NCBI GenBank assembly: GCA_964019425.1
Contig: OZ025802.1
Coordinates: 868,001-932,000, forward strand
DNA: 64,000 nt
Direction of reading: 5' to 3'
Source of the DNA: Flectonema sp. DT1601
Taxonomy: Eukaryota
Positions 44,801-64,000 of the stretch are shown here, one piece after another. Position numbers and translations under genes: made by a program. Numbering within the stretch: the first letter of the stretch is position 1; every line of letters starts with the position of its first letter. The notes under the pieces were generated by a model that was not told the DNA's origin, did not search any database, and saw only the letters and a program-made list of their open reading frames with translations.

Positions 44801-47551
44801 CGGTCAGTCTACTCATCAAAAGTGTAGCGAGTGGAAGACCAGCGACAGTTGTTTGATTGATTCACTGTGTGTGTGGACTGTTGACAGTTGTGTTCCATCA
44901 TCGTGCCCTGCTATTTGTAACGAAGCGGAATGCGAACAAGCTGCTGAGGGATGCCACTACTACAGCAAGGACAAGACTTGCAAGCGATCGGTGTGTTACC
45001 ACCCAGCGAAATCCGAGTGCGAAGGCGACAAGTTGTGCTGGTGGGATGTTTTAGGAAATACTGCTGAAGACAGTTGCAAACCGGTGGTAGGATGTCACAA
45101 GCATAAGAGTGACACTCCTTGTGGCAAGGACAATGCTTGTAATTGGGATCAGTCTGTTGGGAAATGTACCGACAAGCGTAGATGTATTGTCCATCCGGAC
45201 ACCCTGTCGTGTAACAACGACACCGCTTGCGTGTGGAACACTGCCTCTGGTTACTGTGAGGACCGTACTGGATGTGCTCTGTACACTGAGGCAAAAACAT
45301 GTGCTGCTGGTAAAGAACAGTGCTTGTGGATAGTCCAGGATTCCCTTTCGTCTTGCATTGACAAGACATGTGGTGGATACGACTCGCAGCTCACTTGCAA
45401 CGCCGAAGAAACATGTGAGTGGAATTCAAACAACGCGACTTGCTTTGACAAGACTGGTTGTGTCTTGCACATGAGACAGGATATCCCAGAGGCATCTTGT
45501 TTGAGTGACGACCGCTGTGTGTGGACTGGCCTCAAGTGTGAAGACAAGGAGGGATGTGCTGCTTACGTTAAACGTGATGCGTGTACACGTGACACGGGAT
45601 GCACTTGGTTGAGCGAGACTAATGTTTGTGTCGATGACGGATGCAGTGCCATTGCGAACATGGATAAATGTGAATCCGATGCGAAGTGCATGTGGTTTAC
45701 TAACATCGGAACTAATGATCGCTGTGATGACAAGTGCAGTGCACACTTCACTTCTAAGGACTGCAATACCGTTGCCATCTGTGAGTGGTCTCAAGACACC
45801 TGTATCCCAAGTAACTTCTGTCCTGCTACCTACGGAAAAGACAGCGAGAACTGTAACGAGGACATTAATTGTGAATGGTATGTTTATGTTTGTTTTGCAG
45901 TCGTGGCTGCAATAGTATACGTGGTTTTCCCTCTCCTCTTTGTTCTTTTTTCTTTTTTTTCTCTCGTTTCTTCTTTTTTTTTTTGTATGGTCTTAAACAA
46001 TCCGCAAAAACAGGGACGTGTTGTATGAGCGTTGCAACAAGAAGAAGGCTTGCGTGATGTACCCATCTGAAGTTGCGTGCAACGCCACCAGCAGCAAGTG
46101 TATCTGGGAGAAGGAGAGCAACGTGTGCAAGGACATCGCACAGTGCTCGTTCTACGATTCCTCGTTGGTATGTTTTTTTTTTTTTTTTTTTTAAATTTTT
46201 CTATCGAAATGTGACGCAGTTTTTAAGGTGGAAGCTTTTTTTTATTCTTTTTGTTCTTTTTTTTTTGGTCACGGCAGAAATAAAAAAAAAGGGACCAACA
46301 AAACATAATAAAATAATAATACCATCAGGAGTGTGCCAAGGACGCTGGTTGTCAGTGGTCCGACGCCGAACCTGTGTGTCTGCCAAGAGACGATCCATGC
46401 AGTGGAAGACCAGAGAACCTGTGTACCGCTGAGGAGTGCATCTGGGAAGGTGATAAGTGTAAGTTGAAGTGCAGCGAAACCTGCAGCGCGGCGGGAGGAG
46501 TCTGCAACGGCGAGTGCTGCACTTGCAAGCAGGGATACTACGGAGAGAGGTGTGACATGTGCCTGTTTGGAAAATCGGAGAGTGGCGGGTGCCTCACGTG
46601 CTCTGCTGAGTTCTGCAGCAACCACGGACGCTGTGACTCTGAAATGACTTCGTGCATCTGTGACAGTGGCTACGGAGGTGCTGACTGCAGTGCGAGAGTT
46701 TGCAGTGCTGAGATGCCAGTTTGGTACACTACCTTCCCGCTTCGTCCGATGAAGAACGAGCGTTTCACTTTCATCATCCACGGTTGTTGGGACGATGCCG
46801 CGAACAGCACTGGTCGCGACGTTAAGATAGTTCCGGCATCGCAGACGTGTGACAGCCCTGCTTCATGTGGTATGTTATTTTAATTTTACTGTTTGCGTAA
46901 TTGTGTTCTCGGTTTTATGGTTTCTTTCGGATGGGGGGTTTTTTTGTGTATTTTTGAAGGGGAGGAAGATGTGAAACAAAAAGAAATAACAAAAAAAACT
47001 CCAAACAAACAGAGAAACCAATGTTGATGTCCGACGAGCAGCTGGAGATTGGAGATGAGGGTGCGAAGTGTACCAGCTCAAGAGTTTTGAATGCTGCATT
47101 AGAGCCAAAGAGTAAGATGGAGTTGTTGGTTAACACGACTGTGGCATTTGCTGATGAAGATGACAGAGAATTGATTGTGTGCTGGAGAGACCCAGTCAGA
47201 GACCAATGGAGAGAGCTTGAGACTCACTACAAAAATGGAAGTGTTACCAGGACTACTATCGTACAGGGTGCTGTTGATGAAGACACGGGTTCGAGACCTG
47301 CTCCAAATTTGGCTGGAACTGGTGATGAGTGTTGCGAGGGATTGAGACTCGGTGAAGTTTGTCTACCAACTGCTCTTGTTATCGTCCTCTGGGTGTTGGT
47401 ACTCTTCTTGATTGGATATCTAGTTTTTGCCCTGGTCAAAGGGAAGAAGGAGAATGACGCTCTAAGCAACCAACCAAAGAAGGGTTACCAAGACTTCGAG
47501 ATGGAAGATGGAAACAGTGGTTTGGTAAATGATCAAAGAAGCAGCAACTAG
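14860..47551 (+). CDS. Giant cysteine-rich VWA/C-type lectin/EGF-repeat type-I membrane protein, copy A (5'-incomplete at the gap); exons <14860-45877, 46014-46167, 46329-46869, 47013-47551
   Basis: 10,384-aa ORF with 16 VWA domains (first one partial). Removing three GTATGT...CAG introns joins four frames seamlessly (..NCEW/DVLYERC.., ..YDSSL/ECAKDAGC.., ..PASC/EKPMLMSD..). Ends in a TM helix and cytoplasmic tail, with TAG at 47549-47551. Confidence 0.93.
18740..22970 (+). repeat. Block of roughly 28 tandem EGF-like Cys-rich protein repeats (~45-55 aa) within copy A
   Basis: Recurring (D/N)EC...C(PTCANDTC)...GQxCxDP....DWxCxCxPP.G....AxC. Confidence 0.8.
23130..24100 (+). other. Beta-rich adhesin-type domain plus C-type lectin-like domain within copy A
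   Basis: HYYRHF..CTWEEAQNMC..GYLMSVTSGAEN..GWIGA..WKWVTGP..YNQW..EP..GFICEW, which are CTLD hallmarks. Confidence 0.8.
27270..28290 (+). other. Second beta-rich plus C-type lectin-like module within copy A, with a QPD motif
   Basis: TGHYYRYF..CRWDEAKTAC..GYLLSINT..GWIGATD..GEWRWMTGPE..YANWAIGQPDD..EDFAQ..GTWRD..GFVCEW. Confidence 0.85.
28662..44780 (+). repeat. Eleven tandem [VWA + Cys-rich spacer] units with ~1.54 kb (~513 aa) period within copy A
   Basis: VWA starts (CPxxDhhhhhDGSxSM or degenerate) at ~28662, 30201, 31764, 33291, 34857, 36417, 37950, 39498, 41043, 42573 and 44097. Confidence 0.9.
45878..46013 (+). other. Spliceosomal intron 1 (136 nt, phase 2)
   Basis: TG|GTATGT ... AAAAACAG|G; low-complexity T-rich sequence; splicing restores the Cys-repeat frame. 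Confidence 0.85.
46168..46328 (+). other. Spliceosomal intron 2 (161 nt, phase 0)
   Basis: TTG|GTATGT ... CCATCAG|GAG; splicing joins the frame of ORF 46374..46883. Confidence 0.88.
46870..47012 (+). other. Spliceosomal intron 3 (143 nt, phase 1)
   Basis: TGTG|GTATGT ... AAACAAACAG|AG; splicing joins the frame of ORF 47021..47551. Confidence 0.85.
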
Positions 47552-47953
47552 TGTGCTGCTTTCGAAGGTCTTTTCCTTTTTTTTAAGTTTTAAAGTGGAT
47601 TTTTATTTTTATTTATTTTTATTTCATTTCTTGTGTCGAATTCCTTTAATATTGGACTTTGCAAACCCTTTGAGACCCCTTCCCGTATCCCTTACTACAC
47701 ATCACTATGTCACGAGACAGTTGTATTCTACTGTGAATATATTGAACATTTTTTTTCCCCCTTTTTTTTTTCTTTTTTTTCTTGTATCTGAATTGAATTA
47801 AAAAAAATGAATTATATTTGTTCTAAATTTAATAATTTAGTAGTTCGTGGTATTTATTTTTGTTGTCCTTTTTTTTTTTTTTTGAATTTTGATTTGATTT
47901 TTCTGGCAGTCGGTGACCTGTTGTAACTTGTAACTATAATTGTAATTTGCTAA

Positions 47954-47984
<31 letters not shown>

Positions 47985-48397
47985 ATATCATATTCTAGCT
48001 CCGAATCCTGTTGATGAATCAGGGTATCAAGTTGCCCCAGGCTTCACTCGCTTACTGTTATGATTAACGTGTTCAGACGAATTGTCTCTCAGTGGTTTTA
48101 CGAGGGGATAGTTCTGTGGAGAAGAGTGAATGATATGCATTCCACTGAAAAGATAGCATCGATTTCCTGATCGAAGTAACGTTTTTTATTTTTTCCCTTT
48201 CCAAAATGTTTTTGTAAGTGATCTTCAGTGTAGCAGAACCTTGCTTGCTGAAGGTCAGGTAGCGTAGTCCTTTCGTAAATAATAGTTTCTTGGATTTTTT
48301 TTTTTTTTTTTTTCGTTCTCTTATTTTCTCTTGTTTTCTTGTTTTGGTTTTGTTTTTCTATTTTATATACTTCGAGTAGCCCTTAGGAGCCCACCGA

Positions 48398-48487
48398 GTA
48401 TTCTTGCGTCTCTTGATCGATGGTGAAACGCAACAACTATTGTATTCTTGCGTCTCTTGATTGATGGTGAAACGCAACAACTATTGT
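48398..48487. repeat. Tandem duplication of a 44-bp unit
   Basis: GTATTCTTGCGTCTCTTGAT(C/T)GATGGTGAAACGCAACAACTATT occurs twice with one mismatch. Confidence 0.9.
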
Positions 48488-49020
48488 GTCTTGTCATTGG
48501 TGGTAGTAAAGCTTCAAAAATAAAATGCTTTGCATTTTACCCATGTAGATATAAGTTTCAAGATAGGGGAAATAATGATGAAAAAAAAAAAAGATTGTGG
48601 AAGTTAGTTCTTTTTTTTCGATGGATACGAGAAGATGACGAAACGAATTTTATTTAATAAATTTTTTGATTTAAAAAATGCAAAAGAAAGTGCACAAATG
48701 AATTAGTGTTTAGCTTTGATGGACGTGCCTTTTGTCAGTCTGCCATACCAATCCTTTATTAGATACGGATGTATACTGCAAGGGTTCATTCTGACACTCC
48801 CTGTGGAATTTGCGTTTGGAGAGAGATGATGTCCTTTTCTTTGTAAGTAGTGTGTCCCTCTGGTGTAGATTTCCGTCCGGTGGAATGCATTGACGTGCAA
48901 TAAGTTATTATGACATTATTTCTTTTCTTTCTCCCCCTTGCACTTAAGGGCAAGGTACACGCATGCCAGCTCTGAAAGGCAGCTGGTTTTTTTTTTTTTT
49001 TTTTTACAGTTTTTTACATA

Positions 49021-49094
49021 CCCCAGAGGGACCCTCCGTCCCTCTGGTGAGGGACCCTCCGTCCCTCTGGTGAGGGACCCTCTGTCCCTCGGGG
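49021..49094. repeat. Three 23-bp GC-rich palindromic repeats
   Basis: GAGGGACCCTC(C/T)GTCCCTC at 49026, 49049 and 49072, bracketed by CCCC...GGGG. Confidence 0.9.
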
Positions 49095-51119
49095 ATATAT
49101 CGAAAAACTGAAAACCACACGTAAATGGCGTCCACTGTAGCGGATGGGTGAAAGGTGCTACAGGGGTTGAACAAAAAAAAAAAAAAAGAAAGAAAAAGAA
49201 GCTGGGAATCTCGATGCGTCTCAAAATTTGGGGAGCACCCCCAGCCATTTTTAAAATGAACGCCCTGTTCTGAAACTATTTGCGTAATAGTTTGTTTGCC
49301 TGATTATTTTTTCCCCTTCTTTTATATTCCCTTTTTTTGTTTCACAGAATTGGAATAGTATTTTTTTTCCCTTAAAAAAAACAACCAACTGATTTCTGTC
49401 CCACAAATCCTAATGGCAAATCTGCAATCTGCAATCTGTTTTTTTTTTTTTTTCCCCCTGTGTGCTTTACCACGGTATTTCTCCTTAGCCAACTTATACC
49501 TATTAATTGAGTCTCCCTTACTTTCTTCGCTGAAGAGGGCTGGGTAAGGGGAACGGTCCGAAGAAAGATTTTTTAATCTCAGCCCGAAACCAACCATTAT
49601 TTGTTTGTTGTCCTACGAACTTTTTGCATTCGATTGAATTTTCCCGCCCTCTCGATAACCATTAAATACTAACCAATACTAATTAAGTCAAAAAAAATAA
49701 AAAAATCGAAAGGCCACGAAAGTCGAACCTCAGTCAGGGTTTTTAGGGCTAATTAATTAATTAATTAATTAATTTTTTTTTTTTTTTTTTTTTTTTTGTA
49801 ATACAATGGCTGCTTAGGCGGTTGCCCTTACTGGGCCGCTCACGTGCTTATTTAGTATCTTTTTTTAGTTTTTAAAAACGATAAGAACGTTCTTGAAACT
49901 GAATTATAAGAAATTTGGAATAAAGTCCCCTAGTGAAATCCTCAGAGGGACAAGTAGTATAAGATTAAACTATGTTTTTCCACTGTTCTGCTGCCAATGT
50001 AAACATAAATATTTGATGCTGTGAGTGTTTTTTTTTTTTTTTTTTTAATTTAATTACCATACCGTGTGTTTGTTCCATGTGTTTCCTAACTAACCATTTA
50101 TTTTTATTTTATTTAATTTTTATCAGTTCGATAATTTAATAAAAGCTAGGCAACGGTAATTAATGCTTTTCTTTTTTTCATTTTTTTGACCTCTTGTGCT
50201 AATTGTATTTTTCATTTCCCACATCCCACCTCATCAGATTACGTTTACCTTTGTGTAGCCCGGTACAGTCCTTTCTATATTCATGGGGTTCTTTTTATCT
50301 TTATAAAGACCCTGGTATTGCCCACAGGAGTGAGTGCAAAACTTCATCTCCTCTACATACACTGAAGTACATTTTCTTCTGTTGTGGGTTTCGTTATTTT
50401 CTTTTTCTATTTCTTGCTCCCTTTACAATATTGTGATCGATTCATTCTCACTTACAGTATTAGCAACCCTCTTTAACTTCATTAGCTTGTTGTTCTTGAT
50501 CTTTGATTTTACTGCTCTCTTTTTTTCTCTCTCTCTCTCTCCCTCTCCCTCTCTCAAATTTCATTTGTTAGCTTGTTTGCGTCATATGCACAAGTTACGA
50601 ACAAAGAAAAAAAAAGAAAAAACTGAATGTTTTTTAAAAGCTGAACGTTTCTTTTTTAATTTTTTTTAATATTTTCATGTGGATGGAAGCTATCGGACGG
50701 TGGCACAGCCGTCTGACTACTTCGCCTCACGGAATGCGTTGTTCATTCTGTGTCTTCCCTATTGAAGCTCTGAGCTTCTCAAGGAAAGCGTGCATTCTAT
50801 GTTGAGGAAAATCTGCTCTGTGTGTATGTTTTGTATCACCTGAAGAGTTATCTATTTCTTCCCCCCACACACAACAGGGTACAGACTATTAATTGAAGTG
50901 CAGGTATTCTTTTTAAATGTGTTTAGATCCTATTAAGTGACTTCTTCAACCCCCCACAGAACGAGGATATCTCTCACACCCTCCCACGCCCTCATCCCGT
51001 ATTTTCTTTTTAGTTCCCTACAAAGGAACCCCCTCGTTACCCCAACATCAAGGGCTGTTGTTTTTATAACTGAAAGCTCTCGTTTTGTGTGATAACAAAA
51101 AAAAACTCAAAACTAAAAA

Positions 51120-54100
51120 ATGAGAAGTTTCGGCTTCGTGTTAGCTGCTTTGTTACCGGTATGTCTGGCTGGTACGTACGAGCAGAATGTTCCGAAGAAT
51201 GTCTTCAACGTTGATTGTCAAACGATCGTCTTTACTACCGGAGAGTGCGATTGTAACACAGTCATCCCTGGAGCATCAATTGATGTTGAAGAAGGATATG
51301 TTAACGGTAGAGACACATTGTCATGCCCAGCCTGTGCCGGACTGGGTATTCAGACTCAGTGGATCTCCGGAACTGGTGTCTTGAAGTTGACAGGTAATGG
51401 AAAAACCATCAACGACTTCGCCAAGGCAATCGACTCCATAAACTTTTTGACGACTTCAGGAGATGGTAATTCGAGAAGAATTACTTACAACTATGGTCAC
51501 GCTCTTTACTCAAGTGTTACTGGTCACTTCTACGAATTCTATTCGCAGTGTTCCACCTCAGCGTGTCATTGGGACGATGGTCAGGCGTCATGTGCCGATA
51601 AGAAACGTGATATACTTGGGTTGGTTGGTTACCTCGCTACTATTACCAGTGCTGGTGAACGTGATATCACAAATACTAAGATCCGAGGACAAGGTTGGTT
51701 GGGAGCTTCAGATGCTGGTCGAGAAGGAACTTGGAAATGGGTAACTGGACCAGAAGGATGTCCTCCTTATGACACCAGTGTCACTGGAGCACAACGTTCT
51801 GCATGTGACTTCGGATATCCACTTCCTAATAAAAGAAATCCATGTTCTGGTCCAGATTGTGATGGAGGTACTTTAATGGGAACTGGAGCTACTTGGCGGT
51901 TCCGTCAGTCAGGATATGGAAACTGGGCAGGAAGCCAGCCAGACGAATGGAGTCGACCTGTCCACGGAGAAGATTACTTGCATTACTTCGGCAGAAATGG
52001 ATTGTGGAATGATTACCCGCTCACACACGGAAGTATCGATGGGTTTATGTGTGAGTGGGGAGGTGTTGGTGAGCTCTGCATAGACAGTGGTGATGTGTTC
52101 AAATCGTACATCCTTGTTTCTGGATGTGACGGCTTTAAGTCGCAAGACAAGTGTGAAGCACACATTCCAGTTGGATCATGTGCCTGGGATATCAATACTG
52201 GATCATGTATTCCTCATGGTTGTCACGTACACGAAGACGAGGCTCAATGTGGTCAGGATCCACTCTGTGATTGGGATCTTACTGTGTCACCAGCAGCATG
52301 TGTAGACAACAAGTGTGCTTCATCACACACCGATGTTAGTTCTTGTAATGGGGATCTTGTTTCTCCATGTCGATGGGACGATAACCAACCTGACGGTGCC
52401 CAATGTCAGCCACTCAACTGCGGTGACATTACCGACATGTGCACATGTACGAAACTAGGAAACTTGTGCCTCTGGGACCCATCATCAAAGACTTGCTTGG
52501 ATCCTGATCAGAGTACTTGCCCAGCTGCTGATGTTATATTTGTAGTACCAGGTACTAAACATGCTGGAACTCAATTTGGTACTCACACAAATGGATACTA
52601 CGGATTAATGGAACATCTGAGACACTGGACTTCATCAGCTCACATGGCTGGTGCTTCCGACTCCAACTACGGATTCCGTGCGGCGTATGTGACGTACGGA
52701 AGGAATGGAAAGTCGGTCACTGCATCTGACAGCACGGGCGCTCCAGCCACCTTCGACAACTGTAAGACGTGGGACCCAGTTACTGGAACTACCGGAAACA
52801 ACGGAGGGTTCTCTATGAACCCTCACGCTCTCAACATGGACATCAGTTTCTTGGAGAACTTCTACTGTCCTAACTGGGCTGGTAGTGGAAGCTATGCAGT
52901 CCCTGGTCTACAGACTGCTTTGAGCAGTGTTCAGGCCGCCTCAGCAAACGGTCGTAAGAAGTACGTTTTCATTGTTGCTGAGTCGAAACTCAGCGACAGT
53001 TCCACGGACTTGGCCAACGTCGTTAACCAAATTAAGGCTGTGCCTGATACCGAAGTATTTGGAATTGTTCCTCGTGCGCTTCAGGGAAGTACTTCAACAG
53101 ACGTTCAGGCTGAGGCAAAGTTGAAGCCGCTTGTGACATCTGACAAGCACATCGTGAACGTTGAGTTGGCGAATTTGGGAGATGAAGTTCTCTCAAAACT
53201 CTGTGACGCTTCGACAACTTTCGGCAGCGTTATTTCTACGAAATCTGATGTCGGATGTCGCCAAAGGGACGAGACGGATTGTAAGGGTGCTCACCTTTGT
53301 CTGTGGGATATTTCGAAGTCACCATCGTGTGTTAACAGTCCGTGCCTACAGAAGTGTACTGAGGTTGAATGTAATTCCCAGGCCGGTTGCCAATGGGATG
53401 CCGCTCTCGGTGTTTGTGAGAAAGATATTGTCGACTGCTCACTCCACAACGGTGACAAGGCTGCGTGTGAGAACAACGAGAACTGCGTTTTCGAACCAGT
53501 TTGGGCTGCCGCTGATACTTGTGCAACCAACCCGTGTAGGGACTTGACTGATTCCACAAGTTGTGTTGCTGAGACGGAAACTGTATCGGCACCATGTGTT
53601 GATCCTCCTGGTAACCCGGATTATTGTAAATTAAGTGTTTGTGAATATGATGATTCAAAGTCTCCGAAGTGTAATGTTAAGAAGTGTCTTCAGAAGGACC
53701 AGACGAAGTGTGAGGCTGAAGATGGATGTCTTTGGGAGCCACTCCAAACACCTCCGCCAACTGGACCACCATCGACTCTTGTGTCGTACTGTGCTGAGAA
53801 GAAGTGCGACTACCCGAGTCAGGCGGCGTGCGTTGCGGATCCGAAGGGTCAGTGTCAATGGGACGATGGATCTCAAACATGTAAGGAACTTCCATGTGTT
53901 CACAACCCTGACGAGCTGACTTGTGACAATGATCCAGTGTGTCACTGGGATATTTCTACTAACCCACCAGGATGTATTGAGACTCCTTGTGGTAAGAACA
54001 AGAATCAAGGTGATTGTGATGCTTCTAGTGACTGCATGTGGAACAACGATAACCCTGCGAAGCCTTACTGTGAAACATTGAACTGTGGAGAAATAAAGAC

Positions 54101-57100
54101 TGCTTGTGAATGTCAGGAGTCTCCGCACTGCACATGGCGCCAGGCTGCTCAGCACTCCCACTGTGTTGATCCACTGTACTCAACTTGCCCTGATTTAGAT
54201 ATTGGTTTCATTATTGATGGTTCAGGATCCATGTCTCTTCGGTTTGGAAACCATCCTCACGGATTCTTTGCTCTCATGAACATGCTTCAAGATTGGGTGA
54301 AGACTCTTCCGCTTACTGGTGAAGATCACACTGTTGGTGCTCAGTCAACTGTCAGAGGAGGAGGTTTCAGAGTTTCATTTATTCAGTTCTCAAAAGCTGA
54401 TGCTTCTCCTGCTGACGACCATCCAACGAACTGTGCTATTGGTGCTTGCACTGATGGTAAATTATCAGGTATGAGATCTGAGCTTCTCGGTGACATTCAG
54501 TGGCATGAGACGAACTACCAGAGTCAGTGGACGTACATCCACGATGCGCTTTTGGATGTTGCGGAAAACACCATTGACCCGCTTCACTCACCGGCACACA
54601 GAGAACACATTGTGATCATTTTGGCTGACAATGGTCTCACTGACTACGACGGTGATTCCTGCTCTTCGGGAGTCTGTGGAGCTTGCCCACAGGGATGTGA
54701 TTCATTGTTCAAGCCTTCCTACAGAACTATTCTTGACCAGGGTACCGCGAAGTTAGTGGCCGACAACGTCACTGTTTTCGGTGTCGCAATCAGAAGATTC
54801 GCTTCTTCGAACTTCCAGGACCAGAACGCTGAGAACAAATTGAAGCCACTTGTTTCCTCACCTCGTGATGACCACTTTTTGAGTCTGCAAATGGATGAGA
54901 TTCCTGACAAGCTTTTGAAGTCACTTTGTGATCCAAACAGCAAGTTCGGTGCCATCGTGGCACCCGCTGTCAACGTGGATCACTTCCCGTGTGCTTCATG
55001 GGGATACCGCGACGAGTGCATGTCTGATGAGACTTGTGAGTGGGTGACACCAAAACTGACAACTTGTGACGCTACCACCGGATGCCCTCAATTAAATTGC
55101 CAAGAGTTACCAATTCATTACCGAGGAATCTATGAATGTAATAAATGCAGATTAGCTCGTACCGTTATCACTTGCGGAGCCAATGTGGCGTCTTCCATTG
55201 TGGGAACCTGTCGTCAGACTGCCTGCATGGCATGCTGTAACAGCACTTGCTGTGATGCGAAACCGGAGTGCTCATGGAACACAACTGATTCTACGTGTAC
55301 CCGCGATGTCTGCGAACACCCGAACAAGGACGACTGCGAGAACGATGCCAACAACCTTTGCAAGTGGGACCCTGTGACAAAAGATTGCAGCAAGAAGGAG
55401 TGCGAGGCGACGTTTGAGCAACACAAGTGCGCAGCTAACCCTGAGTGCTTGTGGGACGCTGGTGTAGATCCTCCGGTGTGTCTGCCAATTCCGAAGTGTG
55501 ATACTTACACTGCTGAGGCACAGTGTGTTACTGATGTACAGTGTACTTGGAATTGTACTGATTCGGATTGCAGATACACGCTCTGTCCGTTTGCGAATGA
55601 AGTTGACTGCCTGTCATCAACTGACTGCGAGTGGAGCGGTACCATTTGTGTTGAGAAGCCGTGCCGCTACAACACCAGCAGTGAATGTGCCGCTGGATGT
55701 GACCCAAACTGCAAGTGGGACAACAAGACGAGCACTGAGCACTGCAGACAGGATCACTGCAAGAAGCATGCTGGCAACCCAGCCTGTGATAAGGATCCAC
55801 GTTGTCACTGGAGTGGTACAACTTGTGATGAAGACTATTGTGCTGATTACGATAACGATGAAGTTGAGTGCAAGGATGACCCAAGATGTACTTGGAGTAA
55901 AGACGCATCACTCGGATGTGTTTTGACGAACTGTTCAAAGGACCACGGGATCCCATCAACAGCTTCGTGTGCTCCTGATGTGAACTGTAAACCAGGTACA
56001 GATGCTACTGGTGACTACTGTGAACCAACTCAGTGTCATGATTTGGATTCATGTGAGTGTCCACAGAAGGCTGGATGCTACTGGGATCCAAATGGAGGAG
56101 CCACCAACTCTGGAGAATGTAAGGAGGATGCTGGCAGTCTTTGTCCTGACTTGGATGTCGTGTTCTTGCTCGACGGTTCTGGTTCGATGAGCGCTCGCTT
56201 CGGATCTCATCCCCATGGATACCAAGGTATGATTGAAGTACTTAAGGATTGGGTAAACACTATACCTCTTACTCATGAACCTGCTCATACTACATCAACT
56301 GTTACTGGTGGAACATTCCGACTTGCATTCATCCAGTTTGCTAAGACTTCTGAGTACTGGGCATGCAAGAATGATGGATCTGGATGTAACAGAAACACTT
56401 GGGGATGCAGGAATCCGGATGTTTCACAACTTCCTGGTGCAAAGTGCGCGGATGGTACTTTCTCAGGAGATTTAACTGAGCTTCAAAATGATTTGACATG
56501 GCACGAGAGGAATTACATGGGTTCGGTCACTTACATGTCAAAGGCTTTGGAAGATGCTGTTCAGGTATTTGATGACTCTCCTGCAAACAGAAAGCATGTT
56601 GTTGTTATTATTACCGATGGTTCTTTAAATCCTAGAAGTCGTCAATCTAGAGAAATTCCTCCTCTCCGTGCTCAGTTAGACGCGAAGGATGTCATCACGT
56701 TTGGTGTTGTCGTCAGAAAGGGGCAATCGCACACGAAGGCTGATCTCGATGCTGAGGCCACGTTGAAGCCGATTACTAGCGACCCTCATGATGATCATTT
56801 TGTAAACGTTCCACTTGATGACATGTTGGATCACGTGTTTAAAGACTTTTGTGATCCAGCGAGTCCATTTGGTAAGGCTGTGTCTACTGGAGGAACACGT
56901 GCTGCAGTCCTGCCGTGTTCGAAGTGGGGTTTGGAGTCTGAGTGCCACGCTGACGCAAGCTGTGAGTGGACGTCGGCCTTGCCAGCAACTTGTGTCAAAC
57001 CTAGTGGATGCAAGAATCTGAACTGCCTGGAACTCTCAGGGACTCAAGCTCAGGCATACACCTGTGAGCAGTGTGTTCTGGTTGGTTCAGTTGTGACCTG

Positions 57101-60100
57101 CAGTGCTGGGACTAAGAATACTGGCACTGGACAGTGTCTTCAATCTGATTGCTCAACTGCTTGTATTGTGTCCACTTGTGCCAACAAGAACGGATGTGTT
57201 TGGAATGGTGGCCTCTGTCAGGAGGAGCAATGTGACTACGCCAACCGCACTGCTTGTGAGAACGACGCAATCTGCAAGTGGAACACCACCAAATCACCTG
57301 AGGAGTGTGAGAAGAAGCAGTGCACTCACTTTGCTGCTGGACCTTGCAATGGTGACAAGAACTGTACTTGGGATGATGCTACTCAGAAGTGTTATCCAAA
57401 CAATCCAGAGTGTGATAAAATCAAAAATGATGCTTTGTGTTTGGCTGAACCATCTGGCAAGTGTACCTGGAACTGTATCACTGACGGGTGTGAAGTTAAA
57501 AAGTGTGTCTACACATCGAGTGTTGACTGTACAAGAATTGCCAGCTGCCAGTGGGACAACGCGGGACAAGTTTGCCAGGAAAAGCATTGCGTCTGGACTA
57601 AGGAGAATGAGTGCAACGCTGATGCAGTCTGTAACTGGGAGAACAACAACTGTGTTGTGAACGACTGCTACCAACACGGAACTGAATTGTTGTGTGTTCA
57701 GGATGACAAGTGCGAATGGGATACCGCAAACTGTGGAATCTGTAATGAGAAATACTGCCAGAAGTACAACAACAAGGCAGCCTGTGACAGTGACATCAAA
57801 AATGAGTGTCGCTTTGACGATGCTACGCAAAGCTGTGTCGACAAGAACTGCGTGGACTACAACAACGGTGCGTTGTACTCAGCGGGAGCTTCTTGTCCGT
57901 GCAAGAGTGATGCCACTTGTCAATTTGACACGACGACCACGCCTCCGCTGTGCAAGGCGACGGAATTCGAGAACTGTCCGAACCTTGACATAGCCATCAC
58001 CTTTGATGGATCGTGTTCAACAAACAATGCTTTTGGTCAACATCCGTCAGGATTTGAGGGAATGTTGGCAGCTGTGCACGATTGGATTGTCACCGCACCA
58101 CTTACCGGAGAAGCTGCTGGAAAGACCTCGACCGACACCAACGGTAGAATGAGACTTGCCATCAACCAGTACTCTTCCCAAGTTCACGTTGCTGACTGTC
58201 CTAACTGCGCGTGTGACAACCTCGACTTTCCGATCAACGGAGTGAACACGACCAAGTGTGGTAAGCTTTCTGGTGACTTGGGTGAACTAAAGCAGGACTT
58301 GGGCTGGCACGCATCTGCTGCGGGCAAGGCCACCCAGACTTGTGAGTCTCGCCTGAAGCCAGTCGAAGAGTTCGCGACTGAAGTATTTAAGCAGTCACCA
58401 TCAACCAGAATGAAGATATTGATTGTCGTTACTGACGGTGTCATGACTGACAAGGATGAACTTGCTACAACCACTGCTGCTCTCGTTGCCCAGGGAGTTA
58501 AGATCTTTGCTGTCAACGTCATGAAGGGGGCGTCCGCGACCAACACCGACGATGTTGCGTTGGCGTCTCTCGAATCGAAGATCGTCACGACGCCGGCGGC
58601 GCAGAATGCGCAGGGTTCGGACTTGGACTCCCTTTCGGAGTTGTTTGACACCTTCTGTGATCCAAGTGGTAAGTGGGGAGCTACTGTTACTGCGGGTACA
58701 ACGGGAACGACTCAGGTGAAGAAGTGCAGCGATCTCACGACGGTCCTCCTCTGTGACGCTAAGCTGACATGTGATTGGGATGGAACTTCTCTGCTTTGCG
58801 GAGACCACGCATGTTTCACTCACTGTAATGAGACAACTTGTCTTTCGGATCCTCAGAACACTTGCAATTGGAATGCCACTTCCCAGTCCTGTGAAAAGAT
58901 TCCGTGTGACGAGGTGACAAAACAAGATGAGTGTGAGAAGCACACGGAGTGTACTTGGGACGTAACAAAGTCACCTCAATGTACTGAAGATCCATGTCCA
59001 GCTAGAACTGAGAATGCTTGCATTCAGTTGAATGGATGCCAATGGGCAACTGACCCAGCCCCTGCGAAGTGTGAACCTATCCCATGTAACTTTGGAAACG
59101 ACTCTGTGGCGTGTAACGCGGAGCCAGGGTGTGAATTCGACGACGTCTGTCCTGATGCGGTAGACCAGCTTTGCAGATTGAAGCCGTGCGCTCAGGACAA
59201 GCACTTGACTCTGACCGGATGTCAGGCTGATCGCCTTTGTGTTTGGAACTCAAGCAACCAATGCGAACAGGCAGCTTGTGTTCAATACCCAGATGAGAAG
59301 TGTTGTGATCATTATTCTAACTGTCATTGGGATGTTAGTCAGTCTCCAGCAGTTTGCTCAGAGAAGTATTGTCCAAGGACTCACGACAACCAGGTTGAGT
59401 GTGACAAGGATACGAAATGCATGTGGAACTCAACTGACGGTACCTGCATTGAGAAGAACTGTGTCGAACTGGAAGAGTGTCGGTGCAGAGCTGACGCTGA
59501 GTGCTTTTGGGATCATCAGCACCACACTCCTCACTGTTCAGACTCAAAGTTCGGAGAGTGTCCTGTTTTGGATGTCGTCTTTTTGATTGACGCCTCAGGT
59601 TCAATGGGATGGAGATTCGGAAGACATCCAAATGGTTTCTTCGCCTTGATGGAGATCTTTCGTGACTGGATGATGACCGTTAGTCTTACTGGTGAGAAGG
59701 GAGGTGAAAACAAACTTGGAACAGTCGACGGTATCAGAATTGGTTTTATCCAATTTTCTGGTTCCAACCCGCGTAGGGGGCGAGGAGGAGCCGCATGGGC
59801 GAAGAAAACCCCAGCGAACACGGGAACTGGCGGTCGTCTCTCTGGTGACCGTAACGAGTTGCATGCTGACATTGATTGGCATGAGAATAAGTTTTACAGA
59901 TGGGGGACGATGATCGAAAAGGGGTTGACCATGGCCGGTGATGTGTTCGATGCTGCTCACGCCACCAATGGAAGAAAGAGAATATTGATCATCATATCTG
60001 ATGGTAGAATTTTTGATCCGTCAAAGCTCGCTAACGCACGTAAGGTTCTTAATCAGGAGAATGTTCAAACTTTTGGTGTCGTAATCAGAAGACAGGCTGG

Positions 60101-63100
60101 ACACACGAAGGCTGATCGTGACGCTGAGAGTACTCTGAAGCCAATCACTTCGGATGTTCACGATGAGCACTACATGAACATTCAGATGGATGAGGTCAGA
60201 ACAGACATGCTTGACTTGCTCTGTGATCCAAATGGTCCTTGGGGACACTTAATCGTTGATCAAACAAAGACTCAGGCTGGTGTTCACAGGCCGTGCACTA
60301 ATTACCAGGGTAACGCTCAGACTTGTGCTGCAGACCCTGGATGTATCTTCTCCCCTACCACAAACTTGTGTGTTGACTCTCCATGTTCCCATCACTGTGG
60401 TGAAGTACAGTGTACCGCTGATAACGTTAACTTGTGTGTGTGGAACTCTACAACTGGTGACTGTTGGAAGGACACGGAGTGTGCACACACAACGAAGAAC
60501 ACTTGTGAAGGAGACAGGGTTGGATGTAACTGGGACGACACTCGCGATCCTAAATGTGAGAAGACTCCTTGCACTTATGACTCTGAGACTAATTGTTTAT
60601 TAGATCAAACGTGTGAATGGACTACTGACCCAGTTACTGCTGCTGTAGGATGTACACCTATCAAGTGTTTACACAATGACAGCTCTACTTGTGGTAATGA
60701 TCCTGAGTGTGAGTGGAGGACTAACATCTGTACTGGTACTGTAGACTGTGAGGAGAAGAAGTGTACTTTCACATCTCAAACAGTGTGCCTGAAAGACCCT
60801 GCCTGTGAGTGGGAGAACAGCAAGTGTCAGACTCAACCATGCGCTCATTATTTAGAGGAATCTTGTTGTGACAAGGTTGATGAGTGCAAATGGGATGTGA
60901 CGACTACTCCAGCAGTGTGTGATGAAGCCAAATGCCCAAAGTACCCTGACCCAACTCAGTGTAACGCTGACACTGAGTGCTTCTGGACTGCTAACGCGAC
61001 AGGTGTTGAGAAGTGTCTGCCACTTGACTGTTCGAAACTTACAGACAGGTGTGGGTGCGACTCACACCCAAAGTGTTACTTCAAACCAACTCCAACTGGA
61101 GGTATGTGTACCGTTGTAGAGTTCGGAGAATGTCCAACTCTTGACATTGCTATTATTATTGATGGTTCGGGTTCCATGGGATGGAGATTTGGTAAACACC
61201 CACACGGATTCTATGCCCTCATTGAAGTCTTGCGTGACTGGGTTGTCACTCTGCCGCTGAACGGAGAGTCTGGATCAGTTGGAATAAACAGCAAGAAAAA
61301 CAATGGAGGTGTTCGTGTTGGTTTTATTCAATTTTCAGGAAAGTACAGAAGGTCTGAGGCTAAAACCTCAACTCCAAGTGTTGGTACTGGAGGTAGACTG
61401 TCAGGTATCAACAAGGAGCTTCAAGATGATCTTGACTGGCATCACAACAACTTTTATAACAAGGGAACCTACATCAAGAAGGGTCTGGAACTTGCTGTTG
61501 ACATGTTCCACGACAGTAGAATGGATGACGACAGACAGCGTGTTTTGATTATCTTCGGTGACGGTCAGATTTTCGATAGGACGAAGCTTGCTGCTGCTCG
61601 GTCCGACCTCGACAAGGAGGACGTTCAAGTATTTGGTATCGTTTTGAGAAGACAATCCCAGCACACGAGGTCCGATTTAAATGCTGAGAGGACGTTGAAG
61701 CCAATTACTTCCGACCCTCACGATGAGCACTTTGAAAACGTTCTGATCGATGAAGTAAGCTCCTTGATCAAGGATATCTGTAACCCTAATGGACCGTGGG
61801 GACATTTAATTGTCAACCACATCCCAACACCTACCACTGGTCATCACTTACCATGTCCTGACTACAAGGTCCAGGCCAATTGTGTGGGAGATCCGGGTTG
61901 TGTTTGGTCCGATGCTGGTATTGCGTGTGTCAATTCACCTTGTTTATTGCATTGTGACTCGACAAACTGTACCCTCGCTGCTGCTTCTCACAACTGCTCG
62001 TGGAATGCAACTGCTGGGGAGTGTTTCAAGGAACCGGTGCCAGATTGCCACTGCAAGTTCGACACCAACGACGATACCTACAACAAGCAAAAGTGTGATG
62101 CCAACGCGGAGTGCTTCTGGAACGCCCCACTTTCGAAGTGTGAGGTTGACGAGTGCAGTGCGAACAATGCCGGAGCAGTCTGTGCTGCAGCTGGACAGAC
62201 GTGCACTGATCCTAACAAGGAGCCGTGCAGCTTACATGATTGGACTTGCGAGTGCACACCTCCTGCTACTGGATCCAAAGTGGCTGATGTCGCTGAATGT
62301 GTTCTCGATGAGTGTATCGTAATGGGATGTCCAACATGTGCTAATGGTACCTGCCCAACTGGACAGACTTGTAAGGATCCAAATCCATCAGCTTCTTCAA
62401 CAAATGATTGGATGTGTGAATGTGATGATCCAGCAACTGGAAGTGCTATCATCGGAGTTGCTGATTGCAAGATCGATGAGTGCACCTACGACTGCGCATC
62501 ATGTGAAAAGAACACATGTGCAACTAAAGGTCAGAGTTGCCTGGACCCCGACCAGTCGTCAACGTCGTTGAATGACTGGATGTGTGTTTGCGCGCCACCT
62601 GCTACAGCTAACAAGACGGTGGGCCTCGCTGACTGTAGGTTCAACGAGTGCGACCTCGTCACTGTTTGTGATGCCAATGGACAGAAGTGTGTTGATCCAG
62701 ATCTCGAGAAGAAAGACGACTGGAAGTGTGTTTGCAAGGACCCTGCCGTGGGAGCGTCGATCGGCAAGCCAGCGATCTGCGTTTTGAATGAGTGCAACAC
62801 AACTTGTGCCACTTGTGCCAACGACACATGCACATCCCAGAACCAGGTTTGTGATGATCCAAACAAGTCTGAGACAAGCACCGGTGACTGGACTTGTACT
62901 TGTGTCCCCCCGGCAACAGGCCAGGCTACCGGAAATAACGCTGATTGTCTGATTGATGAGTGTACCTACACGTGTCCAACATGTGCGAACACCACCTGCA
63001 GTGACGACAGTCAAGCCTGTCTTGATGCCGACAAGACTTCGACTTCGCTCGGGGACTGGGAGTGCATCTGTCCTCCACCGTCTAACGCAACTCAGCTAAC

Positions 63101-64000
63101 GGGGATTGCTAACTGCAGTATTGACGAATGCGACCTGCACCGTGATATTTGCACGAACCAGGGACAGCTTTGCCATGATCCCAACGGACTGAAGCAGGGT
63201 GACTGGATGTGCATATGCGTTCCTCCATCTAACGGCACCAACGTCGGTGATGTCGCTGCGTGTAAGATCGACGAGTGCGTCGCCACCTGCCCAACGTGCG
63301 CAAACGACACTTGCTCTGCCCAGAGTCAGGAGTGCAATGATCCGGATCCTAGCGCTGACGTTACCGGAGACTGGACATGCAAGTGTGTACCTCCAGCGGT
63401 TGGAAACGCCACCGCCAATGCTGCCCACTGTGTGATCGATGAGTGTACTTTCACTTGTGACACTTGTGCGAACACAACCTGTTCTGATGCTACTCAGGAA
63501 TGTTTCGATAAGGACACCACTTCGACGTCGAAGAATGATTGGGAGTGCGTCTGCCCTCCGCCATCGAACGCAACTGAGGTGACTGCTGTTGCGAACTGCA
63601 GCTTTGACGAGTGTGACCTTCACGGAGACACCTGCACTCGCCACGGACAGGTTTGCAATGACACTGGCCTGCTGACTCTGGATGACTGGGAATGTATTTG
63701 TGTTCCACCAGCAACGGGAAGCAACGTCGGAGACGTCGCAGCATGTCAAATCGATGAGTGTATCGCTGATTGCCCAACATGCGCTGGGACAAACTGCTCT
63801 GATGCACATCAGGTTTGCGTTGACGACAACATGAACGCCACCTCAACTGGAGACTGGCACTGCGACTGTGTTCCTCCACTCAACGGTACGGCGGTTGTCG
63901 ACGCTGCTTCCTGTACCATTGATGAATGTGTTTCAGTTTGTCCAACATGTGCTAATGATACTTGCAGTGGTGTTGGTCAAACTTGTTTTGATCCTGATAA
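51120..64000 (+). CDS. Giant VWA/C-type lectin/EGF-repeat surface protein, copy B, N-terminal >4290 aa (runs off the window)
   Basis: ATG at 51120 after an A-rich context gives MRSFGFVLAALLPVCLAG (signal-peptide-like). Then a lectin module and VWA domains at ~52518, 54186, 56142, 57975, 59559 and 61132. From 58264 on it is ~99% identical to copy A, in the same frame. It is absent from the ORF track, consistent with no stop codon before the window end. Confidence 0.93.
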   Translation, partial: MRSFGFVLAALLPVCLAGTYEQNVPKNVFNVDCQTIVFTTGECDCNTVIPGASIDVEEGYVNGRDTLSCPACAGLGIQTQWISGTGVLKLTGNGKTINDFAKAIDSINFLTTSGDGNSRRITYNYGHALYSSVTGHFYEFYSQCSTSACHWDDGQASCADKKRDILGLVGYLATITSAGERDITNTKIRGQGWLGASDAGREGTWKWVTGPEGCPPYDTSVTGAQRSACDFGYPLPNKRNPCSGPDCDGGTLMGTGATWRFRQSGYGNWAGSQPDEWSRPVHGEDYLHYFGRNGLWNDYPLTHGSIDGFMCEWGGVGELCIDSGDVFKSYILVSGCDGFKSQDKCEAHIPVGSCAWDINTGSCIPHGCHVHEDEAQCGQDPLCDWDLTVSPAACVDNKCASSHTDVSSCNGDLVSPCRWDDNQPDGAQCQPLNCGDITDMCTCTKLGNLCLWDPSSKTCLDPDQSTCPAADVIFVVPGTKHAGTQFGTHTNGYYGLMEHLRHWTSSAHMAGASDSNYGFRAAYVTYGRNGKSVTASDSTGAPATFDNCKTWDPVTGTTGNNGGFSMNPHALNMDISFLENFYCPNWAGSGSYAVPGLQTALSSVQAASANGRKKYVFIVAESKLSDSSTDLANVVNQIKAVPDTEVFGIVPRALQGSTSTDVQAEAKLKPLVTSDKHIVNVELANLGDEVLSKLCDASTTFGSVISTKSDVGCRQRDETDCKGAHLCLWDISKSPSCVNSPCLQKCTEVECNSQAGCQWDAALGVCEKDIVDCSLHNGDKAACENNENCVFEPVWAAADTCATNPCRDLTDSTSCVAETETVSAPCVDPPGNPDYCKLSVCEYDDSKSPKCNVKKCLQKDQTKCEAEDGCLWEPLQTPPPTGPPSTLVSYCAEKKCDYPSQAACVADPKGQCQWDDGSQTCKELPCVHNPDELTCDNDPVCHWDISTNPPGCIETPCGKNKNQGDCDASSDCMWNNDNPAKPYCETLNCGEIKTACECQESPHCTWRQAAQHSHCVDPLYSTCPDLDIGFIIDGSGSMSLRFGNHPHGFFALMNMLQDWVKTLPLTGEDHTVGAQSTVRGGGFRVSFIQFSKADASPADDHPTNCAIGACTDGKLSGMRSELLGDIQWHETNYQSQWTYIHDALLDVAENTIDPLHSPAHREHIVIILADNGLTDYDGDSCSSGVCGACPQGCDSLFKPSYRTILDQGTAKLVADNVTVFGVAIRRFASSNFQDQNAENKLKPLVSSPRDDHFLSLQMDEIPDKLLKSLCDPNSKFGAIVAPAVNVDHFPCASWGYRDECMSDETCEWVTPKLTTCDATTGCPQLNCQELPIHYRGIYECNKCRLARTVITCGANVASSIVGTCRQTACMACCNSTCCDAKPECSWNTTDSTCTRDVCEHPNKDDCENDANNLCKWDPVTKDCSKKECEATFEQHKCAANPECLWDAGVDPPVCLPIPKCDTYTAEAQCVTDVQCTWNCTDSDCRYTLCPFANEVDCLSSTDCEWSGTICVEKPCRYNTSSECAAGCDPNCKWDNKTSTEHCRQDHCKKHAGNPACDKDPRCHWSGTTCDEDYCADYDNDEVECKDDPRCTWSKDASLGCVLTNCSKDHGIPSTASCAPDVNCKPGTDATGDYCEPTQCHDLDSCECPQKAGCYWDPNGGATNSGECKEDAGSLCPDLDVVFLLDGSGSMSARFGSHPHGYQGMIEVLKDWVNTIPLTHEPAHTTSTVTGGTFRLAFIQFAKTSEYWACKNDGSGCNRNTWGCRNPDVSQLPGAKCADGTFSGDLTELQNDLTWHERNYMGSVTYMSKALEDAVQVFDDSPANRKHVVVIITDGSLNPRSRQSREIPPLRAQLDAKDVITFGVVVRKGQSHTKADLDAEATLKPITSDPHDDHFVNVPLDDMLDHVFKDFCDPASPFGKAVSTGGTRAAVLPCSKWGLESECHADASCEWTSALPATCVKPSGCKNLNCLELSGTQAQAYTCEQCVLVGSVVTCSAGTKNTGTGQCLQSDCSTACIVSTCANKNGCVWNGGLCQEEQCDYANRTACENDAICKWNTTKSPEECEKKQCTHFAAGPCNGDKNCTWDDATQKCYPNNPECDKIKNDALCLAEPSGKCTWNCITDGCEVKKCVYTSSVDCTRIASCQWDNAGQVCQEKHCVWTKENECNADAVCNWENNNCVVNDCYQHGTELLCVQDDKCEWDTANCGICNEKYCQKYNNKAACDSDIKNECRFDDATQSCVDKNCVDYNNGALYSAGASCPCKSDATCQFDTTTTPPLCKATEFENCPNLDIAITFDGSCSTNNAFGQHPSGFEGMLAAVHDWIVTAPLTGEAAGKTSTDTNGRMRLAINQYSSQVHVADCPNCACDNLDFPINGVNTTKCGKLSGDLGELKQDLGWHASAAGKATQTCESRLKPVEEFATEVFKQSPSTRMKILIVVTDGVMTDKDELATTTAALVAQGVKIFAVNVMKGASATNTDDVALASLESKIVTTPAAQNAQGSDLDSLSELFDTFCDPSGKWGATVTAGTTGTTQVKKCSDLTTVLLCDAKLTCDWDGTSLLCGDHACFTHCNETTCLSDPQNTCNWNATSQSCEKIPCDEVTKQDECEKHTECTWDVTKSPQCTEDPCPARTENACIQLNGCQWATDPAPAKCEPIPCNFGNDSVACNAEPGCEFDDVCPDAVDQLCRLKPCAQDKHLTLTGCQADRLCVWNSSNQCEQAACVQYPDEKCCDHYSNCHWDVSQSPAVCSEKYCPRTHDNQVECDKDTKCMWNSTDGTCIEKNCVELEECRCRADAECFWDHQHHTPHCSDSKFGECPVLDVVFLIDASGSMGWRFGRHPNGFFALMEIFRDWMMTVSLTGEKGGENKLGTVDGIRIGFIQFSGSNPRRGRGGAAWAKKTPANTGTGGRLSGDRNELHADIDWHENKFYRWGTMIEKGLTMAGDVFDAAHATNGRKRILIIISDGRIFDPSKLANARKVLNQENVQTFGVVIRRQAGHTKADRDAESTLKPITSDVHDEHYMNIQMDEVRTDMLDLLCDPNGPWGHLIVDQTKTQAGVHRPCTNYQGNAQTCAADPGCIFSPTTNLCVDSPCSHHCGEVQCTADNVNLCVWNSTTGDCWKDTECAHTTKNTCEGDRVGCNWDDTRDPKCEKTPCTYDSETNCLLDQTCEWTTDPVTAAVGCTPIKCLHNDSSTCGNDPECEWRTNICTGTVDCEEKKCTFTSQTVCLKDPACEWENSKCQTQPCAHYLEESCCDKVDECKWDVTTTPAVCDEAKCPKYPDPTQCNADTECFWTANATGVEKCLPLDCSKLTDRCGCDSHPKCYFKPTPTGGMCTVVEFGECPTLDIAIIIDGSGSMGWRFGKHPHGFYALIEVLRDWVVTLPLNGESGSVGINSKKNNGGVRVGFIQFSGKYRRSEAKTSTPSVGTGGRLSGINKELQDDLDWHHNNFYNKGTYIKKGLELAVDMFHDSRMDDDRQRVLIIFGDGQIFDRTKLAAARSDLDKEDVQVFGIVLRRQSQHTRSDLNAERTLKPITSDPHDEHFENVLIDEVSSLIKDICNPNGPWGHLIVNHIPTPTTGHHLPCPDYKVQANCVGDPGCVWSDAGIACVNSPCLLHCDSTNCTLAAASHNCSWNATAGECFKEPVPDCHCKFDTNDDTYNKQKCDANAECFWNAPLSKCEVDECSANNAGAVCAAAGQTCTDPNKEPCSLHDWTCECTPPATGSKVADVAECVLDECIVMGCPTCANGTCPTGQTCKDPNPSASSTNDWMCECDDPATGSAIIGVADCKIDECTYDCASCEKNTCATKGQSCLDPDQSSTSLNDWMCVCAPPATANKTVGLADCRFNECDLVTVCDANGQKCVDPDLEKKDDWKCVCKDPAVGASIGKPAICVLNECNTTCATCANDTCTSQNQVCDDPNKSETSTGDWTCTCVPPATGQATGNNADCLIDECTYTCPTCANTTCSDDSQACLDADKTSTSLGDWECICPPPSNATQLTGIANCSIDECDLHRDICTNQGQLCHDPNGLKQGDWMCICVPPSNGTNVGDVAACKIDECVATCPTCANDTCSAQSQECNDPDPSADVTGDWTCKCVPPAVGNATANAAHCVIDECTFTCDTCANTTCSDATQECFDKDTTSTSKNDWECVCPPPSNATEVTAVANCSFDECDLHGDTCTRHGQVCNDTGLLTLDDWECICVPPATGSNVGDVAACQIDECIADCPTCAGTNCSDAHQVCVDDNMNATSTGDWHCDCVPPLNGTAVVDAASCTIDECVSVCPTCANDTCSGVGQTCFDPD
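51170..52130 (+). other. N-terminal beta-rich plus C-type lectin-like module of copy B, with QPD and WND motifs
   Basis: TGHFYEFY..CHWDD..C..GYLATITSAGE..GWLGASD..GTWKWVTGPE..YGNWAGSQPDE..EDYLH..GLWNDYP..GFMCEW. Confidence 0.85.

Follow-up and report, generated by a model that had tools for sequence, protein, structure and literature searches.

Duplicated genes under gene conversion can show a local divergence peak, the human red and green opsins being one example treated in part of the work of Fawcett and Innan (PMC3924837), and this evolutionary pattern is already known. The copies that we analysed of a gene for a predicted giant receptor, likely from a diplonemid, are likewise tandem, near-identical duplicates whose divergence is confined to small regions. 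Those regions are functionally selected in opsin-type peaks, whereas selection on function is what we infer for this receptor. The receptor further differs from the opsins in that its islands are loop-sized (6-30 nt) and are spread over a number of binding modules within a single giant protein of a protist, and the divergence-peak model would be extended to such a case.

The modules themselves also have described counterparts. Integrin αI domains (α1, α2, αM and αX) gave the best sequence and fold matches to the sixth VWA domain of the receptor (VWA6) and have the full MIDAS motif. Unlike integrins, with which identity is about 18%, the receptor would carry 19 VWA domains in one chain, and a Pfam scan of it returned no match to the integrin beta-propeller family. 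With the C-type lectin receptors (DC-SIGN, mannose receptor/Endo180 and echinoderm CEL-I) it has in common the predicted fold and the EPN or QPD plus WND motifs, together with a type I membrane topology and a Tyr-based tail motif that are predicted for the receptor. Unlike those lectins, its lectin domain forms part of a beta-rich module of which bacterial genomes also have examples; this domain occurs together with many VWA domains and, in copy B, has a Pfam score below the curated cut-off.

Apicomplexan TRAP/MIC2 adhesins are type I membrane proteins with a MIDAS-bearing VWA domain, a thrombospondin repeat and an acidic tail with a terminal Trp. The receptor resembles them as a predicted protist type I membrane protein with MIDAS VWA domains and an acidic tail. 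It is far larger than TRAP/MIC2 and multicopy, the Pfam scan detected no thrombospondin repeat, and the tail has no terminal Trp. Programmed cassette conversion of the VSG/vlsE type involves silent donor cassettes, a single expression site and switching in clones. We found no silent donor cassettes of this kind within the window, the 64-kb stretch of DNA that was analysed as a whole.

Tandem copies of a predicted giant receptor

The window contains two copies of the gene, A and B (Table 1). They are tandem copies on one contig, and the array is real because the tail-to-head junction between A and B is ungapped. Copy A starts directly after a run of 200 N, and its 5' part is therefore missing from the assembly. 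Comparison of the window with itself aligned A 14860-20596 to B 58264-64000 without gaps, at an offset of 43,404 nt and with 99.37% identity (36 mismatches); it also revealed that positions 1-2991 duplicate 8618-11608 with a single difference. The 36 nucleotide differences between A and B fall into 33 codons, 21 replacement and 12 silent, which are exactly the approximate counts of the first-pass annotation. Its assignment of 13 replacements to one VWA domain (VWA6) and four to the preceding one (VWA5) was reproduced, and all six motif changes that it listed for VWA6 are present in the alignment. Sequencing error was ruled out as the source of these differences, since all are ungapped and preserve the reading frame and 25 of the 36 are transitions.

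The differences are strongly clustered. VWA6, 672 nt long, contains 22 of the 36 (binomial p = 2e-12). None of 20,000 scan simulations reached the observed 19 of 33 codon events in an interval of that size. At the other extreme, the cysteine-rich block of ~2 kb reported as free of differences is indeed identical in A and B over 2,000 nt, where the background rate would give 5.5-8.4 differences (P(0) = 0.004 to 0.0002). This block is EGF-like by cysteine pattern only; a Pfam scan of 62100-63998 found 0 families at E up to 1. Within copy A, an exact repeat of 296 nt is likely a recent conversion tract inside the gene.

Table 1. Positions of the features discussed, numbered from the first nucleotide of the window
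Feature	Positions	Strand	Positions in A	Details	Evidence
Assembly gap	14660..14859	.		200 N, immediately before copy A	
Copy A	14860..47551	+		5' end cut by gap; 31-kb open frame to about 45877, then 3' exons	
VWA6 of copy A	17727..18398	+		94% identity to B; MIDAS intact	
Exact repeat in copy A	29739..30034	+		296 nt, repeat of 32826-33121; within an internal duplication that is older (~82% identity)	
Predicted transmembrane helix and cytoplasmic tail	47372..47551	+		YQDF, then acidic residues	
Tail-to-head spacer between A and B	47552..51119	.		gap-free	
Copy B, 5' part	51120..64000	+		signal-peptide-like start, lectin module, VWA1-6; leaves window at its end	
N-terminal C-type-lectin-like domain of B	51480..52067	+		QPD 51936-51944; WND 52005-52013	
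VWA3 of B	56142..56873	+		6 replacements vs P0032, 4 top-face	
VWA5 of B	59559..60245	+	16155-16841	4 replacements vs A (2 top-face); 6 vs P0032	
VWA6 of copy B	61131..61802	+		divergence island; intact MIDAS D11-S13-S15, T113, D144	Pfam VWA, AlphaFold, Foldseek
MIDAS loop 1 island	61173..61202	+	17769-17798	R17G, R18W and 2 silent	
Bottom-face replacement	61296..61298	+		R56K, the only one	
Beta-hairpin island	61350..61358	+	17946-17954	G74R, Q76E and 1 silent; third version in P0032	
MIDAS Thr loop island	61467..61472	+	18063-18068	three adjacent nucleotides: one silent and R114Y	
MIDAS Asp loop island	61560..61583	+	18156-18179	K146Q, S148F, K150R, S151T	
Strand E-to-helix island	61668..61691	+	18264-18287	K180R, A184N, K187R and 1 silent	
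Homogenised cysteine-rich "EGF-like" block	62001..64000	+	18597-20596	identical in A and B	

The sequence predicts a gene product of type I membrane topology and ~13,000 residues, an estimate that assumes that the 5' part of B and the 3' part of A represent the same gene. It would contain 19 distinct VWA domains, 10 of them with a full MIDAS, three C-type-lectin-like domains and cysteine-rich repeats. The open frame of copy A accounts for 15 complete VWA domains and two further lectin-like domains; after ~45877, three predicted GT-AG introns connect it in frame with a hydrophobic helix followed by a short tail, whose end lies at 47551, the last acceptor in these splice models being ambiguous. 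The tail motif recurs in the closest relatives, for example as YDGF, YEEF and YEDF. Of 49 tails in which a helix could be detected, 26 contain a Tyr-x-x-hydrophobic match, in some cases at the helix edge. Tyr-based tail motifs act as endocytosis signals. The YxxF-acidic tail points to a capture or uptake receptor; its probable targets are ligands of prey, host or substrate, which it would take hold of and internalise.

Every named homologue that we examined is a diplonemid protein; one JGI/NCBI "hypothetical protein" (P0013) is listed without an organism, and a minority of the 111 matches were looked up. The diplonemid homologues include DIPPA_18845/13460/02028/01853/07282 of Diplonema papillatum together with Rhynchopus, Flectonema, Namystynia, Artemidia and Sulcionema proteins. 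They have the same VWA/cysteine-rich architecture at about 35-48% identity, are multicopy, and are annotated only as hypothetical, Notch-like or halomucin. Another species has several near-identical copies on common contigs. We found no description of this receptor family in full-text searches for diplonemid plus von Willebrand or in broader searches of titles and abstracts, and no literature match for MIDAS polymorphism; these searches covered few subscription journals. The main text of the D. papillatum genome paper contains no match for Willebrand, lectin, EGF or adhesion (PMC10161547).

Divergence islands in VWA6 and the lectin domain

The best stretch of VWA6 against Pfam PF00092 corresponds to residues 3342-3539 of B. 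An AlphaFold model built with 41 sequences had a pLDDT of 95.4, its best Foldseek matches were integrin α1 I domains (E = 4e-10, probability 1.0), and the domain is predicted to have a Rossmann-type VWA/integrin-I-like fold. In alignment with the α1 I domain, the complete MIDAS motif DxSxS...T...D is found in VWA6 of both A and B, and the strand E-to-helix island falls on the αC region. The first-pass annotation had placed the variable sites on the MIDAS face. Predicted top loops do hold 10-12 of the 13 replacements (p = 1e-3 to 1e-5), namely 10 under a strict definition (73 residues, p = 1e-3) and 12 under a wider one (77 residues, p = 1e-5) that leaves one (R/K56) on the bottom face, where top (the loops after parallel strands plus the Thr loop), bottom and core were classed from predicted secondary structure and topology, not from 3D distances, and were drawn with the variable sites known. 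The comparison of top with bottom loops gave p = 0.024. As a measure of substitution tolerance, we used entropy over 200 non-redundant VWA domains, from 285 found. Mean entropy was 3.43 at the 13 variable sites versus 2.46, so these positions are variable across the whole domain family, and the top-face enrichment holds among high-entropy positions (p = 6e-5 to 0.02).

Positions 17 and 180 of VWA6 map to ligand-contact regions of integrin α2 (the loop after DxSxS and αC), on what we take to be the α2 MIDAS numbering. In integrin α2, Asn154, Tyr157 and Tyr285 contact ligand, as stated in a section of bioRxiv 10.1101/2025.07.28.667101. K/R swaps account for four of the 13 changes. The idea that copy A has the more arginine-rich face was not borne out, as Arg occurs four times in each copy at the variable sites, and eight (A) versus nine (B) times on the top face. 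Lys occupies four variable sites in A versus one in B, and W, Y and F are present in B; the predicted binding face is more Lys-rich in A and more aromatic in B.

Comparison of the two DNA sequences gave no dN/dS above 1 at the binding surface, with omega at 0.67 over VWA6 (pN 0.030, pS 0.044) and 0.59-0.76 on its top loops. Omega outside VWA6 was about 0.36 by subtraction, and the ratio of replacement to silent changes inside versus outside the domain did not differ significantly (Fisher p = 0.72). Positive selection, one of the processes originally proposed, is not supported in the sense of dN>dS: the VWA6 value of 0.67 is not significantly above background, the result named beforehand as speaking against it. 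Silent changes are themselves concentrated, with six of the 12 in VWA6 (p = 0.001), five of these six on top loops (p = 0.015-0.019) and four of them no more than two codons away from a replacement (p = 0.004). The pS value is 0.11 on VWA6 top loops, 0.01 elsewhere in VWA6 and 0 over the 2 kb of identity; 5.5 silent changes fall in about 50 top-loop silent sites versus 1 in about 96-99 outside these loops. Because silent divergence is concentrated on the loops, beside replacements, the VWA6 loops are older than the flanking sequence. The overall profile is that of a divergence peak: divergence is mostly low, with a local peak that includes silent sites.

A donor search showed that no VWA domain in the 64-kb window carries the A or the B state across the VWA6 islands, and the longest matches of the islands to other VWA domains within the window were 14-15 nt. 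A 14-nt match of B loop 1 to VWA5 was rejected as a donor; it does not exceed other chance matches in length and may reflect shared ancestry.

A third copy, the ENA protein P0032, matches residues 1-3485 of B with 97.9% identity. Its frame stops within VWA6, and it could represent a paralogue, an allele or a close strain. The largest divergence island between B and P0032 is the N-terminal lectin domain, with 34 of 65 substitutions and two insertions in 196 aa (p = 2e-25). The remaining substitutions fall mainly in VWA3 (6), VWA5 (6), the covered part of VWA6 (5) and the linkers (12 in 1,822 residues), with one each in VWA1 and the first 120 residues and none in VWA2 or VWA4. VWA2 of B has an intact MIDAS yet no difference from P0032. 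Of the 18 VWA differences, 13 occupy the top face (p = 0.0025, but a marginal 0.053 when top loops are compared with bottom loops), and at sites outside the A/B test the count is 9 of 12 (p = 0.0085). A, B and P0032 fit a star tree, with 8, 7 and 7 private changes, respectively, and one three-state site. We rejected the notion that P0032 proves loop shuffling: its eight switches between A-like and B-like states in 14 intervals also fit private mutations on a star tree.

The lectin domain has QPD plus WND in B, and EPN plus WND in P0032. EPN is described as the classical mannose motif and QPD as the classical galactose motif in part of PMC12842671, where the two are also said not always to be predictive of specificity in invertebrate lectins, with molluscan exceptions. 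Taken from the motifs, a functional change between the copies is suggestive only. The model of the domain has a pLDDT of 91.3, the listed Foldseek matches are C-type lectin domains (best E = 3e-6), and sequence matches in the PDB reached E = 1e-4. Against Pfam Lectin_C, the B domain scores 16.7 bits, below the cut-off of 22.6, and the third lectin-like domain passes with 26.5. This larger island with its QPD/EPN switch had been missed in the first-pass annotation and is visible only against the third copy.

Variation in relatives

Five copies from D. papillatum have 43 of 233 columns variable in one MIDAS-intact VWA domain, compared with 4 of 216 in a neighbouring VWA domain without the MIDAS motif. 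Among informative site pairs in the D. papillatum VWA domain, 44 of 91 are incompatible, and all four pairings of loop-1 with strand-E-loop haplotypes are represented. Eight of the 13 variable positions of VWA6 in the window are also variable in D. papillatum (p = 4e-4; entropy-matched, p = 0.02). Top-face enrichment was not significant in this VWA domain, with 19 of 84 top and 10 of 54 bottom positions variable (p = 0.15), and in some copies block-wise differences extend to the cysteine-rich region (103 of 771). A general rule that MIDAS-intact domains vary and dead ones do not was discarded, as it holds one way only: VWA2 of B is almost invariant, as are two D. papillatum domains in which DxSxS is present.

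In an ENA family of 10 proteins, the pattern of A and B is repeated by a same-contig pair, P0019/P0020, whose 46 differences are confined to residues 1-2,120 out of 5,956; the top face holds 20 of the 27 located in VWA domains (p = 5e-4; top versus bottom loops, p = 0.053, marginal). Over the 10 pairs tested in this family, top-face enrichment reached p<0.05 in four when compared with the whole domain and in one when compared with bottom loops; in distant pairs, top and bottom loops are equally variable. No VWA excess was seen for P0009/P0016 and P0011/P0023. Pairs made up of transcript isoforms, or of near-identical database entries (P0004/P0029, P0003/P0024 and P0133/P0178), were uninformative. 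Incompatibility in the family rises from 0.13 at <=10 residues to a plateau of 0.32 beyond, with a PHI-like p of 5e-4 for pooled domains of five or eight of the 10 proteins; one of four single-domain PHI tests was significant. Short loop motifs recur at different domain positions across these proteins, beside domain-specific flanks. The recombination signal is confined to the relatives, two other diplonemids, and to the protein level, and the window copies A and B with P0032 alone give a star tree.

Probable gene conversion and selection, and alternative explanations

We consider it reasonably probable that gene conversion homogenises the scaffold of the receptor while selection keeps differences at the binding sites, so that the copies form a recognition repertoire. 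Short-tract conversion, with tracts of tens of nucleotides, would homogenise the scaffold of the tandem copies, and selection would remove those conversions that erase binding-site differences. Islands of silent and replacement changes would then remain on the VWA MIDAS loops and the lectin site, the silent changes riding along beside selected sites. The VWA domains would bind protein ligands via Mg/Mn and the lectin domain glycans via Ca, and additional copies could increase the variety of surfaces (prey, host or substrate) that the receptor recognises. Of the original proposal of diversified binding on a homogenised scaffold, the mapping to the MIDAS face, the homogenisation and the recurrence elsewhere stand; selection as dN>dS and a donor in the window for "targeted" conversion do not. 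The weak points are an omega below 1 and a top-face enrichment that is weak or absent in several replicate pairs.

If selection for different binding sites had no part in the pattern, VWA6 and the lectin domain would be neutral leftovers that escaped recent conversion, with old differences persisting in tolerant loops around a purified core. An omega of 0.67, the coincidence of the 13 sites with family-wide variable positions (entropy 3.43 vs 2.46), the D. papillatum divergence in blocks outside VWA domains and the equal variation of top and bottom loops in distant ENA-family pairs are all in keeping with this. Such leftovers, however, predict silent changes spread over the whole domain, rather than 1 in about 96-99 sites against 5.5 in about 50. 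Top-face enrichment also persists at tolerant positions, the islands match binding modules in three comparisons (A/B, B/P0032 and P0019/P0020), and the QPD/EPN residue pair changes jointly, and we regard the neutral account as unlikely. The opposite possibility, plain positive selection on point or multi-nucleotide mutations after a recent duplication and with no conversion, is quite improbable in our judgement. It would fit the private top-loop changes and separate hairpin versions of A, B and P0032, the several A/B differences at adjacent nucleotides and the variability of the same VWA6 sites in D. papillatum. Against it, there is no dN>dS, the relatives have four-gamete violations with multi-residue haplotypes, and a loop pS of 0.11 next to 2 kb without any difference would require parts of the gene to be of different ages.

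In another account, balancing selection, for self/non-self recognition or escape from viruses, would maintain the variants as alleles, with haplotypes mixed across the array in the assembly and identical blocks that may be partly collapsed consensus. The region is hard to assemble, as seen from the start of A at a gap and the duplication of 8618-11608 by 1-2991, and P0032, whose frame ends inside VWA6, could be an allele. The ungapped tail-to-head junction nevertheless requires at least two tandem copies, near-identical copies lie on common contigs in another species, and ungapped, in-frame differences with 25 of 36 transitions are unlike sequencing error; we give this reading little credence. 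At the other end of the range, a dedicated diversifying mechanism might transfer short cassettes of loop sequence from one domain or gene to another and so assemble a combinatorial repertoire. ENA-family loop motifs that recur in different domain positions beside domain-specific flanks, and linkage that decays within about 10 codons in that family, are what it would produce. But the donor cassette is absent from the window, targeting signals and a single expression site are without evidence, and ordinary conversion plus selection gives the same picture, which makes a dedicated mechanism highly improbable. A combinatorial repertoire might also arise by focused conversion, with VWA loops and lectin motifs swapped between tandem copies as 10-30-nt cassettes. 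We think this rather unlikely; if true, cassette swapping would make the copies differ individually in the prey, hosts or viruses that they bind and would amount to an innate-immunity-like diversification in a free-living marine protist.

Conversion of the scaffold with selection at the binding sites, the reading that we prefer, can be set beside what has been reported of these organisms. Diplonemids glide, attach and aggregate, their ecological role is virtually unknown, and invasion of host or prey has been hypothesised, according to sections of PMC5845003. A multicopy receptor that varies at predicted binding sites, including the QPD/EPN switch, would provide direct candidates for diplonemid recognition. 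Among the 48 lectin-like domains that we collected, 13 have EPN and 7 have QPD.

Lectin-like module at the N terminus of copy B

The N-terminal lectin-like domain lies within a beta-rich module, and relatives of this module were confirmed in 165 of 228 candidate stretches from bacterial genomes. These relatives come from Bacteroidota, Chloroflexota, cyanobacteria and other groups, with identities of 26-40%. The module may be of bacterial origin.

Features located in the window
Feature	Coordinates	Strand	Remarks
Beta-rich module with inserted C-type lectin domain	51174-52130		Bacterial relatives at 26-40% identity
Two additional lectin-like domains	23484-24032, 27618-28235		Both in copy A
Non-LTR-type reverse transcriptase ORF	6230-11503	+	RVT_1 and zf-RVT matches
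AT-rich satellite (~142 bp) plus 212-bp repeat	2991-5540, 13236-14659, 12001-12646		
Short tandem repeats (23 bp, 44 bp, TAAT)	49026-49090, 48398-48487, 49750-49774		Spacer between copies A and B

Frame, lectin-like domains and copy variation

In copy A, a single open frame extends without interruption over more than 31 kb (14862-45877), and along it GC content rises from approximately 47-51% to 58-60% and then falls again. One of its two additional lectin-like domains is degenerate (EPT, WST), and the other carries QPD and WRD. The frame of P0032, the protein of the third copy, ends within the MIDAS Asp loop of VWA6; at the protein level, a contig end, a frameshift or a pseudogene could each account for this stop. 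Position 28 of VWA5 (59640-59642) differs F/Y between copies B and A, and the same position toggles between F and Y among the D. papillatum copies.

Repetitive DNA upstream of copy A

Positions 1-2991 duplicate 8618-11608 with one difference, through either recent copying or duplication in the assembly. The AT-rich satellite is present in both orientations and extends up to the assembly gap.
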